From Escherichia phage ELT1, in sequence record MZ892903.1: a DNA stretch of 64,000 nt; one strand, given 5' to 3'. The notes beneath the pieces were generated by a model that ran no database searches, had not been told where the DNA came from, and saw only the letters and a program-made list of their open reading frames with translations. Positions 17,727 through 51,589 of this stretch are shown here, piece after piece. Positions within the stretch are counted from its first letter, which is position 1. Every line of letters begins with the position of its first letter. Both the position numbers and the translations under genes were made by a program.

Positions 17727-18197
17727 TTAATCATGTTTCCACACCCCATCGGTATTTGACCAAAGTCGCTGATTATCTGATCCTCGCCACAGCTTTTTGG
17801 TCGGAAGATTTTTCTCATACTTCCCATCAATAATAACATCAACATATTTAAGCATTTCTAGTTGTTTAATATCTTCAAACTTATATCCTGTCCACAACCA
17901 GATATCTTTCTCCGGAAATCTTGCTTTAACCCAAGAAACTAAATTTGAAATCTCTTCTCGGTTCTGTGGATAAAGTGGGTCACCACCGGTTAAGGTAAGG
18001 CCTTGGATATACGATTTGCTTAAATGGGACGCAAGTTCTTTAACGGTATTCATAGTGAATAACTGTCCGTTACGAGCATTCCAAGTACTACGATTATAAC
18101 AACCTTCGCATTTATGCAAACATCCAGTGACGAAGAGAACGACCCTGCATCCAGGACCATTAACAAAGCAGCACGGGTATATTCTATCATAATTCAT
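17727..18197 (-). CDS. nrdG: anaerobic ribonucleotide reductase activating protein (radical SAM)
   Basis: Start at MNYDRIYPCC giving 156 aa; Cys cluster CLHKCEGC. Confidence 0.85.
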   Translation of the reverse strand: MNYDRIYPCCFVNGPGCRVVLFVTGCLHKCEGCYNRSTWNARNGQLFTMNTVKELASHLSKSYIQGLTLTGGDPLYPQNREEISNLVSWVKARFPEKDIWLWTGYKFEDIKQLEMLKYVDVIIDGKYEKNLPTKKLWRGSDNQRLWSNTDGVWKHD

Positions 18198-18819
18198 CTT
18201 TATATTTCCAAGTATATCCCTTATGAATAGATTGAATTCCTTTGCAACATTTATAAACAGCAGAATGAAAAAATCCTGCATTTCTTATTTCAGTTGCTCC
18301 AGTTAGTTCTATTGTATTTCCGTCTGGTGAATAGCCAATAACCGTTTTGGTGTTAAAGCGATTTCTAGAACTATTTTTGATATGCTCTTTATGACTAGTA
18401 GACAAAGTTCTTCCTGTTAGCCCATCAGATATCCTTTTTCCAAAATCATCAGGAAGAGTTACTTTAGACCTAGCTATGCTCATTAGCTTCTTAGTTTTAT
18501 CGCTTCTTTTTGTGCCACGCTGATTTTCAAATTTCTTAGCTTTTGCATACGCGTATTGTGAAGAAGTAACTTTTCTATGCTTACTATTACTCATTATCCA
18601 ATATGCATCATACATCTTTCCACCACATATTTTAGCCAATAAATGGTGAGCAGTATAGTGGGCCTTATAAGTTAAAAATACTAAGTTGTCTAAATCATCT
18701 GAACCACCCATGCTTCTTGGAATTATATGATGAAGTTCATACCCGGCTTTAGTTTGACGGGGCTTAGATGGGTGTTCAGCAGAATTAACTAGATTTGAAT
18801 AGATTCTGTCATAATTCAT
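18187..18819 (-). CDS. HNH homing endonuclease (Mob family, mobC position)
   Basis: 210 aa; HHIIPRSMGG...N...H HNH motif; free-standing between nrdD and nrdG. Confidence 0.75.
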   Translation of the reverse strand: MNYDRIYSNLVNSAEHPSKPRQTKAGYELHHIIPRSMGGSDDLDNLVFLTYKAHYTAHHLLAKICGGKMYDAYWIMSNSKHRKVTSSQYAYAKAKKFENQRGTKRSDKTKKLMSIARSKVTLPDDFGKRISDGLTGRTLSTSHKEHIKNSSRNRFNTKTVIGYSPDGNTIELTGATEIRNAGFFHSAVYKCCKGIQSIHKGYTWKYKDEL

Positions 18820-18831
18820 TGGTGTTTAACC

Positions 18832-20124
18832 CTATGCATGTTTTACTCGTTTTACCATTTCTTTCATTTTACCTAAATTCCATGGGACAACGCTAGGAGT
18901 TCCAAGATATCCGCATGTTCTTCTTATGGTGTTCATCTTTTTAGGATCAGTTTCTCCACAAATAGAACAAACAAATCCGTTTTCAGTAGGAGTCATTTCA
19001 TGGGTACTTCCACATGTAAAACATTTATCTACTGGCATGTTAACACCAAAATAATCTAAATGTTGCGCAGCATAATCCCATACGGCCTCAAGACCTTTTA
19101 AGTTATTTTTCATATCAGGAAGCTCAACATAAGAAATGTGACCACCTGTCGCAATGAAATGATATGGCGCTTCACGAGAAATCTTTTCAAACGGAGTAAT
19201 ATTTTCTTCTACTGAAACATGGAAACTGTTAGTGTACCAGCCTTTATCAGTAACATCTTTTACACTTCCATATTTTTCTGTATCGAGTTTACAGAAGCGA
19301 TAACAAAGGTTTTCAGCAGGAGTCGAATATAAACTAAAAGCAAATCCGGTTCTTTCAGTCCACTGTTTAAGATGGGCATTCATTTTAGTTAAAATTTCTT
19401 GTCCAATATCACGACCGACAAGAATATTCAATTCATGAATACCAATGTATCCTAAAGACACTGAACTTCTACCGTTTTTAAATAACTCAATTATGTCGTC
19501 ATCAGGTTTAAGACGAACCCCGAATGCACCTTCTTGGTAAAGAATAGGAGCAACAGTCGCTTTAACTCCTTTTAAGGAACTAATTCTACACATCAAAGCT
19601 TCAAAACACAAATCCATTCGTTCATTGAATAATTCAACAAATTTCTGTTCATTGAACTGTGTTCCAATATAAGAATCTAATGCGATACGAGGAAGATTCA
19701 GTGTTACAACACCAAGATTATTACGTCCATCAAGAATTTCATTACCAGTCGAATCTTTCCATACACTCAAGAAACTACGGCAACCCATTGGAGAAACAGG
19801 AACAGATGAACCAGTGATAGCTTTATTGTTCTTAGCTGAAATAATATCAGGATACATTCTTTTGCTTGCGCACTCTAGAGCAAGCTGCTTAATATCATAG
19901 TTCGGATCGTCTTTATAAAGATTAACACCTTCTTCAACGAACATAACAAGCTTAGGGAAAATAGGAGTTATCCCATCACGACCAAGACCTTTAATACGAT
20001 TTTTCAGAATTGCTTTCTGAATCATTCGTTCAGTCCAGTCAGTTCCCGTACCAAATGTAATTGTTACAAAAGGCGTTTGTCCATTAGAGCTGAAAAGTGT
20101 ATTTACTTCATCATTATATTCAGC
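18832..20124 (-). CDS. nrdD: anaerobic ribonucleotide reductase NrdD, exon 2 (5' boundary approximate)
   Basis: Glycyl-radical enzyme C-terminal part with Cys-rich tail CFTCGS...CSICG; ORF continues upstream into the intron. Confidence 0.7.
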   Translation of the reverse strand, partial: AEYNDEVNTLFSSNGQTPFVTITFGTGTDWTERMIQKAILKNRIKGLGRDGITPIFPKLVMFVEEGVNLYKDDPNYDIKQLALECASKRMYPDIISAKNNKAITGSSVPVSPMGCRSFLSVWKDSTGNEILDGRNNLGVVTLNLPRIALDSYIGTQFNEQKFVELFNERMDLCFEALMCRISSLKGVKATVAPILYQEGAFGVRLKPDDDIIELFKNGRSSVSLGYIGIHELNILVGRDIGQEILTKMNAHLKQWTERTGFAFSLYSTPAENLCYRFCKLDTEKYGSVKDVTDKGWYTNSFHVSVEENITPFEKISREAPYHFIATGGHISYVELPDMKNNLKGLEAVWDYAAQHLDYFGVNMPVDKCFTCGSTHEMTPTENGFVCSICGETDPKKMNTIRRTCGYLGTPSVVPWNLGKMKEMVKRVKHA

Positions 20125-21165
20125 ATGAGTCGCAAATTCATGCCCGTTTATATGAAACAACAAAATTTGGATAGTCCATAGATATGCAACGTTCTTTTAT
20201 AGTGCTAGGATGAAAATTTAGCGCTTTAGCTGCTTCTATATAAGACGTATACTTAATACCGTCAACAACCACATATTCAGGAACTTTATGAATAGTAGTC
20301 TTAATACTCAAAACAAGAGGATGAGTTTCGACTTCACTTTCAGTGCAATTTAAATATTCCGCTGCTTTTTTAAAACTTCTAAAAGTTTTATTTTTAAGCT
20401 TTATCGATACTTGTTTTTTACTTTTTCGACTATTGACATTATTTTGCACATGTTCCTTAGATCTTCCGTTTTTAGCATAATATTCAGCTACAGAAGATTT
20501 TATATTGTTTTTATGAGATTCGGATAACACTTTACCCTTATGAGCATCTCTTAATTTTTGAATATGTTCTTCAGTATCCGGATGCTTATAAAACTTTTTA
20601 CCGCCTATGGATTTATTTAAACATTTTTTGCTATAAAAATATTTACGTATGACCTCTTCTTCATGTTTTAATGCATCTTTATAACTATCAAATGTTTTTA
20701 AAATTATCCATTTAGTAGGTGTATCAGTTTTTAAGCGTTCATTTATATACTTAGATGACGTTGTGTAAGTTTTCCAGTTTGTGGGCTTGTTTTTAATTGT
20801 TCTAAATTTTTTATAACCGATATAAATGTCGCCATTAGAAAACTTAACTAAGTATGTAAATGCGTCTTTATCTTTTATTTTAGTACAACGTCTTTTTATC
20901 CATTTCATTGTTTCACCTCGTATTCATAAGATAATCTTATTTATACAAGATGACTGCTGCATGTCGCCATGCAGATTAGACTATATCTTCATCTTTCGAT
21001 GCCGGCCGTTTCGAATAGCATTAGCTTCTATTCTACACCGCTACATTCATCACGGTTAGTCGTTAGGCATTTAGTTCAAAAGAACATTTAGCACGGGATT
21101 GTCTACTAGAGAGGTTCCCCGTTTAGACCGGTTTTACATGAGCCTGAATTAAATTAACTCATACG
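20125..21165 (-). mobile_element. group I self-splicing intron in nrdD with embedded homing endonuclease (boundaries approximate)
   Basis: nrdD reading frame interrupted by about 1 kb containing an endonuclease ORF; about 240 nt of structured non-coding sequence between exon 1 and the endonuclease ORF. Confidence 0.6.
20138..20908 (-). CDS. intron-encoded homing endonuclease, I-TevII-like
   Basis: 256 aa basic ORF inside the nrdD intron; GIY-YIG-like N-terminus (DIYIGYKKF). Confidence 0.75.
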   Translation of the reverse strand: MKWIKRRCTKIKDKDAFTYLVKFSNGDIYIGYKKFRTIKNKPTNWKTYTTSSKYINERLKTDTPTKWIILKTFDSYKDALKHEEEVIRKYFYSKKCLNKSIGGKKFYKHPDTEEHIQKLRDAHKGKVLSESHKNNIKSSVAEYYAKNGRSKEHVQNNVNSRKSKKQVSIKLKNKTFRSFKKAAEYLNCTESEVETHPLVLSIKTTIHKVPEYVVVDGIKYTSYIEAAKALNFHPSTIKERCISMDYPNFVVSYKRA

Positions 21166-36798: not shown

Positions 36799-37012
36799 AT
36801 TTTACTTCCTCACCAGTACCTAAATCATATTCAACTAAACGAATAGGCTCATGAATTCCATATCCTTGAACAGAAATTTCTGTCGTGGGATAAATTCCAT
36901 CAATATCACCCATGTTCCATGCTTCGTTAAATTGCTGTTCGCCTGAATTACTAAACCATTCGGCGAAAGCATTTAGCACATCTTCAGAACCTTCAATAAT
37001 TATCTTTGCCAT
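36791..37012 (-). CDS. hypothetical small acidic protein (vs.x)
   Basis: 73 aa ORF. Confidence 0.4.
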   Translation of the reverse strand: MAKIIIEGSEDVLNAFAEWFSNSGEQQFNEAWNMGDIDGIYPTTEISVQGYGIHEPIRLVEYDLGTGEEVKYD

Positions 37013-37374
37013 TACAAACTCTCGGTAAAGGTACGAGCGATAACGTCGCGCTGCTGTTCCGGAGTCAGAGAGTTAAAGCGAACTGCATAACCGGATACAC
37101 GGATGGTCAGCTGCGGATATTTTTCCGGATGCTTAACTGCATCTTCCAGAGTTTCACGACGCAGAACGTTAACGTTCAGGTGTTGACCACCTTCAATTTT
37201 AACTGTAGGCTGTTGCTCAATTTCAATTTCACGGGCATGCAAACCATAGAAAATTTCTGGGTCTACAAAAGAGTCCTCTTTAAAGGTTTTAGAGACAATA
37301 ATTCGTGCTTGAATACCATCTTCAAAATAAATAGTACCTTTATGTGTGCCTTCAAGAATTTGATATGCTTTCAT
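37012..37374 (-). CDS. autonomous glycyl-radical cofactor, GrcA/YfiD-like
   Basis: 120 aa; C-terminal RVSGYAVRF glycyl-radical signature. Confidence 0.8.
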
Positions 37375-48195: not shown

Positions 48196-48920
48196 TATAG
48201 TACCTTTAGTGTATTTTTAATTTTAGAAAAAAGTTCTTCAAGAGAACCATCGTTTGTAATTACTAAATCGCCATCACGAATTGGCAATCCAGCTTCTGTA
48301 ATATGTGTATCATTGGATTTTTGACCAGGACGAACTACATGAATTACTGTAGCACCCATCGCCCTAGCCGCATCCATTTCATGATCTTGACGGGTATCAG
48401 GAACGATATAATAATCATAACCTGAGTTAAATTTATCAAGATAATCTAAAGCAAATAATTTTACCCAGTACATGCGGTCGAAGTTATTAACAATCAAATC
48501 CGTACCTAGGGCTTGCATCAGACGACGGACTGACCATTGATCTTCAATATTATTTATAACGTCAGCAATCTTGTTAAATGCTACGGAATCAACTGATTCT
48601 TGTCCTTCGTCCTCAAAAACACACACACCTTTAATTGGGCTTTTACTATTAAGATAGCAAAATGCTTGTTCCATAATCGTGATTACTTCTGATTTAGTCA
48701 GATTTAAATTAGTCTCACGATCATAGTCAATTCCTTCAAACTCTTTACGAGTTAAGCAAGGATAGTCAGTGTTTTCTGCAAATACACCCCATGCATAAGC
48801 CAATGCATCTTTAATAGGACCAGCAAGTTGATATTTAACCGCAGAATAATTGCTCATGATAAAATCAGCAGTAGTATCTTTTCCACTACGCTTTACACCA
48901 CTTAAAAAGATTAGTTTCAT
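48195..48920 (-). CDS. 1: deoxynucleoside monophosphate kinase
   Basis: 241 aa as in T4 gp1; P-loop GVKRSGKDT. Confidence 0.9.
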
Positions 48921-48969
48921 ATGTTTCTCCTCAAATTTAGTTAAGATTATAACACATGAAACTGAAGCA

Positions 48970-49500
48970 TTAAACTTCTGCTATAATTTTGCCATCTTTT
49001 TCTACTTGAAAATACGTATAAGGAATCGTTGCTGTACATACTAAAGCTGGGTCTGAATCTTCCGTGTAGCTAAATTCTACTTCAGACAAGTCAGAAACCC
49101 AAGGCTTATAAAAATTTATTGACATCACGATTTCAGTTTTACTATTATCTAAAATGTAAAGCGTGATGTATTCAGGACCTGTTTTTTGGGCAGTATTTTC
49201 ACCTGTAAGATAGTTGCTAGTTCCTAGCATCCATTCATACATTCCTATCCACGACTTAAGCTCTTCATCAACTATAAATCTCACAATGAGTGGGTCGTAC
49301 TCAAATGTAACACCTGGACGTTGTGCTCGGCCCAGTCCAAACGGCCCAGTCACGGTATCAGTAACAGGTATTCTAATTCCTGGAATAGGAACTGACTGAG
49401 CATTTAAAGTAAAAGCAGATGTAGTATTACTATGCGGTATTGATACTACAAAGTTAGTTGTATTTGCTTGGTTAAAAATTTGTTGTAGTGCTTGCGACAT
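48970..49500 (-). CDS. 3: tail completion and sheath stabiliser
   Basis: Start at internal ATG gives 176 aa as in T4 gp3. Confidence 0.8.
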   Translation of the reverse strand: MSQALQQIFNQANTTNFVVSIPHSNTTSAFTLNAQSVPIPGIRIPVTDTVTGPFGLGRAQRPGVTFEYDPLIVRFIVDEELKSWIGMYEWMLGTSNYLTGENTAQKTGPEYITLYILDNSKTEIVMSINFYKPWVSDLSEVEFSYTEDSDPALVCTATIPYTYFQVEKDGKIIAEV

Positions 49501-49606
49501 ATATTCCTCATAATGCTTTATAAATGTTGGTGGTATAATGGGTCTAAGTCCCTTCCATTCAATTCCAATTAGAACAAACAATAGAAAAGAATGGAAGATA
49601 ATAGAA

Positions 49607-50266
49607 TTAATTTATTAGACTTCTTAAACGAGCAGAAGTCATAAATGGAAATTTTTCTAAAGTTGGCTTTCGCCAATATCTTGGATGACAAGTTGATTTA
49701 AAATCAAGAACAATTTTCTTTGCTTCATCAATAGTGTTAACTCCAAAGTTATCTAACATTATTTTCTTTTCTTTTTCCCACCGTTTATTAGCTAAAGCAG
49801 ATTGAAGCTTTTTGTTTTTAAATGTGTCATTTTTTCTAGAATGAGTTGTTCCTTGTGTCGGACTCCATCCTCTTCCTAAAATAAATCCCTCAGGAATTAT
49901 ATCTCCATCATGTAATTTTATACATCTTTTACCATTATTATAATATTTTCGTCCAGTTTGTGTATTTGAAATATTATTTGCATGTTTTCTTTTTAACCAA
50001 CCATAAACTTTATTATTTCTCCTAACATATTTAGTTGAAACCGTCATTTTTATGGCTGCATAAGATAATTTTAAAGAATTTGGGTGTATTTTTACTAATA
50101 GCTGATGTGCAACATAATGCTCTTCTGGAGTTAAATCAACCAAGTTAGAAGCATCATTACTACCGCCTAAACATTTCGGAATAATATGATGTCTTTCTTT
50201 ATATCCAGTAAGGGCTCTATTGCGAGCCCTATCAATTAGTGAATTATAAATTTTTTCATAATTCAT
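49607..50266 (-). CDS. HNH homing endonuclease (Mob family) inserted between genes 2 and 3
   Basis: 219 aa from MNYEKIY; [10 protein letters not shown]...N...H motif; paralog of the ORF at 18187-18819; ATGA overlap with gene 2 stop. Confidence 0.7.
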
Positions 50267-51090
50267 CGTACATTGCTCCAAACTTTGTTTGCAGAGAAAC
50301 GTTTTCCTTTGGAGTAGAAGCTTTGGAGTGGCATTAACACAACGTTCGCCCAGTCTTTCGGGGCGATTTCAACAAGGCTACCCATAATATTACCAGGTAT
50401 ATATGCCTTAATCATTTGGTCTGCACCTCTAAATCCTTTCACTTGACTCCAATCAATTTTTAATTTCGTTTTATTAGTAATAGTAGGTGTATTTGCATAT
50501 TGCTTTAAAAGCTCTTCTAGAAATTGCTGACGAGCTTTAGGTGGAATATAGTGCAAGTTCAATCCGTACATTAAATTGTGTTTACCTAAACCGAGGTAAA
50601 TTATCAAAGGAAATTTATCCCAATAAGGAAGAGTTTCTTTGTGTTTAGCATCATAAGCAAAAGCATATATTCGTCCCGGCTGCGGGCGAACAACTTTATG
50701 TCCTTTTACCTGCTTAATAGTTTCAGCAAACCACTTTCTGGTTTTATTATTAATTGCTGCACCTTCATTACGAATTTTATCACGCAACGTTTGCCTGAAT
50801 GAATTTATCATAAGCAGTTGTCTTTCTTGCTTATTGAGTTTATTCATTGGTTTTGATTCAAGCTTTTGAATCTTTTCAGCCGTTTTAATTCCTGAAGCAT
50901 ATTTTGACATTGCCGAAGTAAACGTAGAGTATTTGATTCCTCTTTCTTCAGCAAATTGCTTTCCTGTCATTCCTTTTGCTTTGGCCTTTTTGTATTCAAG
51001 ACCTATCTGAATCCATTTCTTTTCGTTTAATGATTGCTTAACCTTTGGAACTTGGGGAGTGCTTTCATTAATTATTTGAAAAATAGCCAT
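50263..51090 (-). CDS. 2: DNA end protector protein
   Basis: 275 aa, basic; synteny between genes 4 and 3. Confidence 0.8.
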
Positions 51091-51542
51091 TATGCCCCCT
51101 TAAAGCCAAGAGCTCGTAATCCATCTTCTGTTAAAATTCTAAATTTTATTCCACGCTTTTCAGCTAAAGCTTGAGCTGCTTTCCATTTGTCAGTATTAAC
51201 TGAATATGTATAAATTTCATTCATAAATCTTTTCTTCGCTGCAGTTGTTAGATGTGCTGGTTTAACTGGTGGTTGTGTTTCTTTTTTAGGCTTTATTTCA
51301 ATAAAAAATTCTTGTCCAGAAGAATCTTTCATCCAAATATCCATGAAGTATCTACGTTTTTTCCCTTCTGCATTACAAAAATAAGGAATTACTGCTGTTT
51401 CACTACCCCATGCAATAATTTCTGGATTTTTATCTAACCATTCAAAAAAGAATTTTTCCCAATTTGATCTATACGTAATTTTTTTAGGGTCACCTCTATA
51501 CTTTGATATATTTTTAGGAACCCATTTTCCAGAATATGCCAT
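51090..51542 (-). CDS. 4: head completion protein
   Basis: 150 aa as in T4 gp4; divergent from gene 53. Confidence 0.85.
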
Positions 51543-51561: not shown

Positions 51562-51589
51562 GATAATATATTTATAAACAGGAGGGCCC

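Follow-up and report, generated by a model that had tools for sequence, protein, structure and literature searches.

A putative free-standing Mob-type HNH homing endonuclease gene at the 3′ end of gene 2 in Escherichia phage ELT1 and related T4-like phages

The open reading frame at 49607..50266 on the minus strand of the window, by which we mean the whole 64,000-nucleotide stretch of Escherichia phage ELT1 DNA analysed here, is very probably a free-standing homing endonuclease gene (HEG) of the Mob type, carried as a cassette of the ORF only; both the nuclease activity and the homing are predicted from sequence comparisons. The element itself is real, varies between phages and has been publicly annotated since 2006, the gene call being already known, and what we add is modest: an insertion point that is identical across genera, a linkage to the 3′ end of gene 2, and a candidate target patch within gene 2 that is open to test.

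Results and discussion

The insertion and its junctions

The ORF consists of 219 codons and a stop, and its start codon (ATG, 50266-50264) overlaps the TGA stop of gene 2 in the minus-strand bases ATGA at 50263..50266 (numbered 50266-50263 in the direction of reading), as seen by direct reading of the sequence. Gene 2 (50263..51090, minus strand) encodes a DNA end protector of 275 amino acids, which matches phrog_429 with an E value of 6e-80 and has 98.9% amino acid identity to T4 gp2. On the other side, gene 3 (48970..49500, minus strand, with its ATG at 49500) encodes a tail completion/tube terminator protein of the Phage_T4_gp19 family, 176 amino acids long and 100% identical to T4 gp3, and the spacer of 106 nt between gene 2 and gene 3 (49501..49606, minus strand) is intact on the 3′ side of the insert, with a length equal to that in T4 and a near-identical sequence. 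Apart from the insert, the local gene order is that of T4: the minus strand carries 1-3-[HNH]-2-4 and the plus strand 53-5. An earlier reading of this DNA, made from its letters alone (the sequence-only reading), had placed a Mob-type HNH gene between two late genes, 2 and 3, with its start overlapping the end of gene 2 in ATGA, and had taken T4 to be without an endonuclease at this position; both points proved correct, the T4 record (NC_000866; gene 3 at 75424-75954 and gene 2 at 76061-76885) having a 106-bp spacer that holds no ORF. The table of T4 HEGs given by Edgell et al. 2010 likewise has no entry at genes 2/3 (PMC2988022).

At the empty site, gene 2 ends in ...GCA AAC AAA GTC TGG TCA AAT ATC TAA, followed by TTCTATTATC..., whereas at the occupied site it ends in ...GCA AAC AAA GTT TGG AGC AAT GTA CGA TGA, followed by the HEG, whose own end (...AAT TAA) is followed by the same TTCTATTATC.... 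The stop codon of the inserted ORF stands where the original gene 2 stop was, the net gain is 659 nt and the 106-nt spacer is unchanged, such that the cassette amounts to approximately the ORF only. Recoding of the final gene 2 codons, from T4 TGG TCA AAT ATC TAA to TGG AGC AAT GTA CGA TGA, changes the end of the protein from SNI-stop to SNVR-stop and yields not only the ATG but also GGAG, a Shine–Dalgarno-like element at 50276..50279 (minus strand), 9 nt upstream of the endonuclease start. The GC content of the ORF is 29.4%, compared with 35-37% for the flanking genes. An intron-encoded HNH enzyme of the I-HmuI or I-TevIII type was rejected, because genes 2 and 3 are complete and co-linear with those of T4 and the junction differs from that of HEG-negative phages by the ORF cassette alone; a terminase-associated HNH protein (an HK97-type packaging accessory) was also rejected, the neighbours being genes 4, 2, 3 and 1, with no terminase, and most relatives being without the gene.

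The encoded protein

The ORF matches PHROG 655 ('homing endonuclease') with an E value of 1e-58, far above chance level, and the Pfam families HNH and HNH_5 with weak scores (17.8 and 16.5 bits) that lie under the curated/gathering cut-offs. The HNH catalytic core, residues 24-54 (50105..50197, minus strand), was assigned from invariant residues, a motif alignment and an AF2 model. No substitution occurs at His26, His27, Asn41, His50 or His54 in 29 homologs; a group II intron maturase and McrA have HNH motifs with which this one can be aligned; and the model (pLDDT 89) contains a beta-beta-alpha core made up of strands at residues 24-27 and 42-45 and a helix at residues 47-60. An intact HNH motif and homology to the T4 Mob proteins, together with the PHROG match, bear out the assignment to the Mob type.

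This homology is confined to the N-terminal domain, which is related to that of all five T4 proteins, MobA-E. In BLASTP comparisons the protein aligned with MobB (45% identity over 126 amino acids, E 1e-29), MobE (62% over 63 amino acids, E 2e-26), MobD (53% over 75 amino acids, E 1e-22), MobC (34% over 134 amino acids, E 2e-17) and the MobA fragment (E 4e-6), and none of the T4 Mobs was similar to it past residue ~126. The window contains one other HNH-like ORF only; it lies at 18187..18819 on the minus strand, between nrdD and nrdG, and is the mobC ortholog, with 98.6% amino acid identity to T4 MobC; T4 mobC is itself located between nrdG and nrdD (PMC2988022). The sequence-only reading had described the present gene as a paralog of this nrdG-adjacent one on the strength of two shared motifs, and the motifs are indeed in both: the N-terminus is MNYEKIY in the present protein and MNYDRIY in the other, which also has HHIIPRSMGG. 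The relationship, however, holds for the nuclease domain only (E 6e-15 between the two proteins of the window), there being no relationship between the C-terminal halves, and among the T4 Mobs it is MobC that lies farthest from the present protein.

The C-terminal region, residues ~105-219 (49610..49954, minus strand), is lineage-specific and conserved across the orthologs linked to gene 2, and is presumed to be a module for DNA binding and specificity. In the AF2 model it forms two beta hairpins, a disordered linker (residues 143-148) and a helical domain, with pLDDT >85 outside the linker. Residues ~115-219 match none of the T4 Mobs, Pfam searches with the isolated C-terminal half gave no match even at E<=10, and fold searches returned no informative structural match.

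Distribution in Tequatrovirus

A megablast search with window positions 48900-51200 matched 512 phage records, essentially all from Tequatrovirus. The HEG is present in 36 of the 512 (the 36 including 4 RefSeq/GenBank duplicates), among them RB32, RB33, HY03, fPS-2 and vB_EcoM_112, and the remainder, about 93%, align in two pieces on either side of an empty site. Empty sites in T-even genomes, which the sequence-only reading had proposed to look for, are thus the common state, and the gene is far from being shared by all T-even phages including T4. The same reading had called the insertion strain-specific, which does not hold: the gene occurs in RB32, RB33, HY03, fPS-2 and about 30 others, and orthologs are found in Moonvirus, Gaprivervirus and Muldoonvirus. 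Nor is it the useful lineage marker that had been suggested. Its value as a marker is poor because the flanks are mosaic: within 1.3 kb on the left and 0.75 kb on the right, no flanking site co-segregates with it other than a 16-nt patch in gene 2, considered below, and the flank haplotypes that carry it differ between RB32 and the window. For HEG-based typing of therapeutic T4-like phages, the element therefore marks a segment of about 0.7 kb and not a lineage.

The protein of RB32, ORF146c (ABI94970.1, in DQ904452), is 100% identical in amino acid sequence to that of the window. Its annotation, dating from 2006, reads 'putative site-specific intron-like DNA endonuclease ... similar to mobB; not conserved from T4 position', and RB32 was later described as having two mob-like HNH genes (Petrov et al. 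2010, PMC2993671). In the literature searched, whose coverage left out most subscription journals, we found neither an experimental study of ORF146c, of VR7ORF161c or of any HEG between genes 2 and 3, nor activity data for the protein or any ortholog. The Tequatrovirus copies are near-identical to one another (34 records at >=99% amino acid identity), which leaves little power to detect selection within the genus, and the window protein is the majority form (cluster P0001, 137 members).

The same insertion point in other genera

Full-length orthologs lie 3′ of gene 2 in Citrobacter phage NM4.3 (Moonvirus; 65% identity to the ELT1 protein), in UPEC07, VR7 and VR25 (Gaprivervirus; about 60%) and in Serratia phage SP1 (Muldoonvirus; 52%), and the slot next to gene 2 is thus filled in at least four T4-like genera. 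The annotation of VR7 ORF161c refers to RB32 ORF146c. Three genera share exactly the same insertion point, and in each genus the HEG stop substitutes for the original stop of gene 2, with the same sequence beyond. Every start codon adjoins the gene 2 stop or overlaps with it, the junction being ATGA in the window, TAATG in NM4.3, TGATG in SP1 and TTGA in UPEC07 and VR7. All 10 of the metagenomic and genomic orthologs that we looked up are directly 3′ of gene 2, and at one of these loci (L154) the order is gp2-HNH-gp4, with gene 4 rather than gene 3 following the ortholog. The linkage is therefore to the 3′ end of gene 2 and not to gene 3.

The gene is patchily present outside Tequatrovirus also. 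Nine of the 34 Gaprivervirus records carry it (about 74% do not), with a net insert that is again 659 nt, and the SP1 relatives L007 and L011 are without it. Scans of IMG/VR, with gp2 and with the HNH alignment, recovered few Tequatrovirus loci and only two further full-length orthologs, most of the HNH matches having residues 1-100 alone in common with the ELT1 protein.

Selection, decay and the standing of the gene

Between orthologs, dN/dS was 0.09-0.27, and the endonuclease protein has therefore been under purifying selection. Decayed copies nevertheless occur at the same site: in CT01 an in-frame deletion of 486 nt removes the nuclease domain and leaves a 57-amino-acid remnant that lacks residues ~14-175, and FL23 and FL44 have in common a 1-nt deletion in an A-run, which may be a frameshift or possibly a sequencing error. 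Patchy presence, a mixture of intact and decayed copies, and low GC content make up the population signature expected of a homing endonuclease gene, to judge from sequence comparison.

The same data can be read as those of an accessory gene that has been domesticated, its role being beneficial to the phage and tied to gp2 (DNA-end handling, anti-defence or competitor exclusion), with no need of homing to explain the coupling to gene 2. The linkage and the start/stop overlap are kept in every ortholog, in at least four genera and even where the other neighbours have changed; the purifying selection is clear; and HEG divergence parallels that of the flanking genes (65/60/52% identity across the genera for the HEG, against 73/70/59% for gp2), as it would for an ordinary gene inherited vertically. 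In addition, a 2025 preprint reports that HNH homing endonucleases of other phages attenuate a break-sensing defence without catalysis (doi 10.1101/2025.09.07.674715). A beneficial role of this kind fits poorly, however, with a gene that is missing from about 93% of Tequatrovirus and 74% of Gaprivervirus records, that has been deleted in CT01 and that may be frameshifted in two further records, and a homing target in gene 2 would account for the linkage just as well. We consider domestication unlikely.

The gene might also be an inactive relic, the immobile leftover of a past invasion that is kept because the invasion was recent or because removal would disturb the expression of genes 2 and 3. 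Many of the HEGs of T4 are defective, mobA and I-TevIII among them (PMC2988022), and decayed copies occur at this site. Against this stand the state of the ELT1 copy, in which the ORF is full length and the catalytic residues and conserved C-terminal positions are all intact, its identity to the majority form, and the values of dN/dS between lineages, which are far under 1 and indicate that the protein has been functional over long periods. We regard a relic, too, as improbable, and a functional homing endonuclease gene as the reading that best accommodates these observations.

A candidate target within gene 2

Ten Tequatrovirus sequences were aligned over 1.3 kb of the left flank and 0.75 kb of the right. 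Their polymorphisms form a mosaic that shows no linkage to the HEG, with a single exception among these ten sequences. This is a 16-nt patch within gene 2 (50311..50326, minus strand), 30-45 nt upstream of the junction, that has 9 substitutions relative to T4: T CAG CAG TTC GTT TCA in T4 is C CAA AGC TTC TAC TCC in the window, and QQFVS in gp2 becomes QSFYS. A divergent donor could have left the patch as the margin of a more extensive co-conversion tract; this was rejected, there being no other linked site in the 1.3 kb upstream or the 0.75 kb downstream.

In the phage collection, 52 records have the window-type allele and 450 the T4-type, where window-type denotes at least 95% identity to the window over a 138-nt segment spanning the patch, the patch letters themselves having been read directly in the window, RB32, FL23 and CT01 alone. 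The window-type class holds all 36 HEG-positive records and the CT01 remnant, together with about 14 of some 465 HEG-negative records, and no T4-type patch was seen among the 36 HEG-positive Tequatrovirus records. Two of the HEG-negative phages, vB_SsoM_113 and SG1, combine the window-type patch with a T4-type gene 2 end. Such genomes were rejected as simple, precise deletions of the HEG, because their last gene 2 codons are T4-type, and they are instead either recombinants within a 26-nt identical block or carriers of a pre-insertion allele.

Similar differences are found at the equivalent codons in other genera. In Muldoonvirus, HEG-positive SP1 has CAA TCC TTC CAG, whereas HEG-negative L007 and L011 have CAA CAG TTT GTT; in Gaprivervirus, the HEG-positive phages VR7 and UPEC07 have GCT TTT TAC AGC and CAG TTT TTT TCA, respectively, and the HEG-negative VR20 and ECML-359 have CAA TTT ATG TCG. 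The changes between HEG-positive and HEG-negative relatives are replacements of whole codons, that is, of three nucleotides, and a single inherited allele does not explain them, since the serine codon is AGC in some lineages and TCC in another.

On the model of MobE and nrdB and of the Seg enzymes (PMC2790892, PMC2988022), the patch is a candidate recognition or cleavage site, and the chances seem to us evenly balanced that it forms part of that site and that carriers are immune through it. We go no further than this because there are counter-examples: four HEG-positive loci (L059, L146, L150 and L151) have the consensus-like QQF(V/M/L)S, Acinetobacter phage Ac42 has QSFQS and is HEG-negative, and SP18 has a VR7-type patch and is also HEG-negative. 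A universal association between patch and element was rejected on these grounds, the exceptions being of both kinds. Moreover, the patch is only 30-45 nt from the insert, and its association with the HEG could for this reason persist by linkage alone. A bolder proposal, to which we give rather little credence, is that the HEG lineage and a hypervariable mini-cassette of four codons, Q-[Q/S/A]-F-[V/M/Y/Q/F/L]-S, set in a gp2 motif whose other positions are conserved, record an arms race replayed independently in at least three genera, or else an enzyme co-opted to gp2, for example against break-sensing host defences.

Predicted expression and a model for homing

A perfect match to the T4 late-promoter consensus, TATAAATA, lies upstream of gene 4 at 51569..51576 on the minus strand. 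A consensus scan found no second perfect box between this one (51576-51569) and the endonuclease gene, and it is the likely source of the endonuclease transcript because it is the sole perfect match in that interval. The simplest reading is a late 4-2-3 transcript in which the HEG is a promoterless cassette whose translation is coupled to that of gene 2; its expression is thus probably late and dependent on that coupling. The same arrangement, without a promoter and with co-transcription from upstream, has been described for mobA, mobC, mobD and mobE by Edgell et al. 2010 (PMC2988022).

In the model that we propose, the late promoter ahead of gene 4 would drive transcription of genes 4 and 2 together with the endonuclease gene, whose translation would be coupled to that of gene 2. 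In a co-infection with a HEG-negative relative, the enzyme would nick or cut the DNA of that relative within the 3′ end of gene 2 or close to it, and recombinational repair off the carrier genome would transfer a copy of the cassette to the recipient along with a short stretch of flanking DNA, the whole process constituting intronless homing with local marker exclusion. A conserved gp2 motif, P-L-Q-Q-F-V-S-K-G-K-R, is encoded about 30-45 nt upstream of where the cassette is inserted, and the target may include this DNA, at or near CAGCAGTTCGTTTC; the patch of 9 substitutions at 50311-50326 and the recoded junction would together protect the carrier.

Mosaic flanks, recombinants that have the patch only, and decayed copies are population data compatible with preferential inheritance and co-conversion.

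Two features give the locus some wider interest. The comparative data offer a specific 16-nt candidate site in gene 2, and the element, situated in an essential late structural operon whose gene 2 end it recodes, would illustrate cleanly, in a natural setting, the way in which an HEG cassette without a promoter comes to be expressed.

Comparison with known endonucleases

I-HmuI, from Bacillus phage SPO1, is an intron-encoded, strand-specific nickase with an N-terminal HNH domain and an extended C-terminal DNA-binding region. The general architecture predicted for the ELT1 protein is alike, and the resemblance is one of analogy only: I-HmuI is encoded within an intron, and it was not recovered as a significant sequence or fold match to the ELT1 protein.

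Closer comparisons are with the T4 Mob proteins. MobC has the HNH domain, the MNYxxIY N-terminus and its free-standing status in common with the present gene, but its C-terminus contains repeated G-x-x-x-S-x-x-x-K motifs, putatively of the NUMOD3 type, which the ELT1 protein is without. MobB gives the longest N-terminal alignment and is named as the closest relative in public annotations; it is a protein of 264 amino acids with repeated C-terminal modules, encoded between a-gt and a-gt.2 (PMC2988022). MobE has a homologous N-terminal HNH domain and an unrelated C-terminal domain, and its gene is inserted between nrdA and nrdB, whereas the present one lies between gene 2 and gene 3, in a late structural operon. 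MobE and MobA are the characterised free-standing HNH enzymes, and the only T4 Mobs with a known target (PMC2988022); MobE is promoterless and co-transcribed with its upstream gene, nicks nrdB, the conserved gene next to it, and is passed on to progeny at high frequency (PMC2790892, PMC2988022).

The nearest counterpart is RB32 ORF146c, which has the same position and junctions and an identical protein, on a flank haplotype that differs from that of the window. The remainder of the window differs from RB32 as well; no near-identical genome was found for it, the best match being about 97% over 24 kb. The orthologs of Gaprivervirus, Moonvirus and Muldoonvirus, such as VR7 ORF161c, are 52-65% identical in amino acid sequence and share the insertion point, some of them with TTG starts, and their gp2 patch alleles (QAFYS, QQFFS and QSFQS) differ from that of ELT1.

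Decay of the endonuclease gene and the allele of gene 2

The homing endonuclease gene (HEG) that follows gene 2 (49607-50266, minus strand) is found in disrupted form at the same site in other phages. In CT01 (OK018184; compared locus L140), a 486-nt in-frame deletion has removed the nuclease domain, so that only 57 aa remain. In FL23 and FL44 (PP400787 and PP400790; locus L141), one nucleotide is missing from an A-run that corresponds to window position ~50087, and the ORF is split there, although this last deletion may be a sequencing error. In FL23, one position of the 16-nt patch of gene 2 (50311-50326), our candidate target of the endonuclease, is back to the T4 base.

A variant gp2 motif, QSFQS (codons CAA AGT TTC CAA AGC), also occurs at the 3' end of gene 2 in Acinetobacter phage Ac42 (locus L006), which has no HEG after the gene and a spacer of just 200 nt. 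Either this motif was left behind by an earlier invasion, or it points to an old variant allele that does not depend on the HEG.

At the junction itself, the final codons of the HEG (49607-49625; AGAAGTCTAATAAATTAA) are similar to the T4-type 3' end of gene 2 in phages with an empty site (AAAGTCTGGTCAAATATCTAA), a likeness that may be microhomology from the original insertion, or chance.

As for gp2 itself (50263-51090), residues 1 to ~79 match PHROG 32288, annotated 'HTH DNA binding protein' (E 5e-22), and residues 79-274 match PHROG 429, the DNA end protector; these profile matches suggest a protein of two modules.

Related endonucleases at other loci

Many Tequatrovirus genomes possess, at another locus, a HEG whose first 94 residues are ~69% identical to those of the gene 2 HNH protein and whose C-terminus is unrelated to it, which is evidence for the shuffling of one nuclease domain onto different specificity domains. 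Examples among the protein matches are teqhad (36996-37277), F13076 and AV120; judging from the coordinates of one record, teqhad at ~37 kb, the site may be the a-gt/mobB region.

In other T4-like genera, a different HNH HEG, with an N-terminal domain as in the gene 2 HNH protein (46-56% identity), is located shortly upstream of gene 4 or between this gene and gene 2 (546-1253 in compared locus L057, 569-1258 in L147, ~1340-1670 in L008/L009 and 1611-1940 in L015). Mob-type cassettes seem to have landed repeatedly in the gene 4/2/3 block.

Comparison with known phages

The place of the T4 nrdD intron endonuclease is taken in the window by a 256-aa ORF (20138-20908, minus strand), which splits the nrdD reading frame (part of it at 18832-20163, minus strand). 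This ORF, which we take to be I-TevII-like GIY-YIG, also contains GKVLSESHKNNIKSS-type motifs and, together with mobC (18187-18819, minus strand) and the gene 2 HNH gene, therefore brings the window to at least three HEGs.

Over window positions 14000-38000 (24 kb), no near-identical phage was found in the collection searched, the closest being JEP6 (96.8% over 97% of the query). The window therefore comes from a mosaic Tequatrovirus other than RB32, even though RB32 has the same HEG allele.
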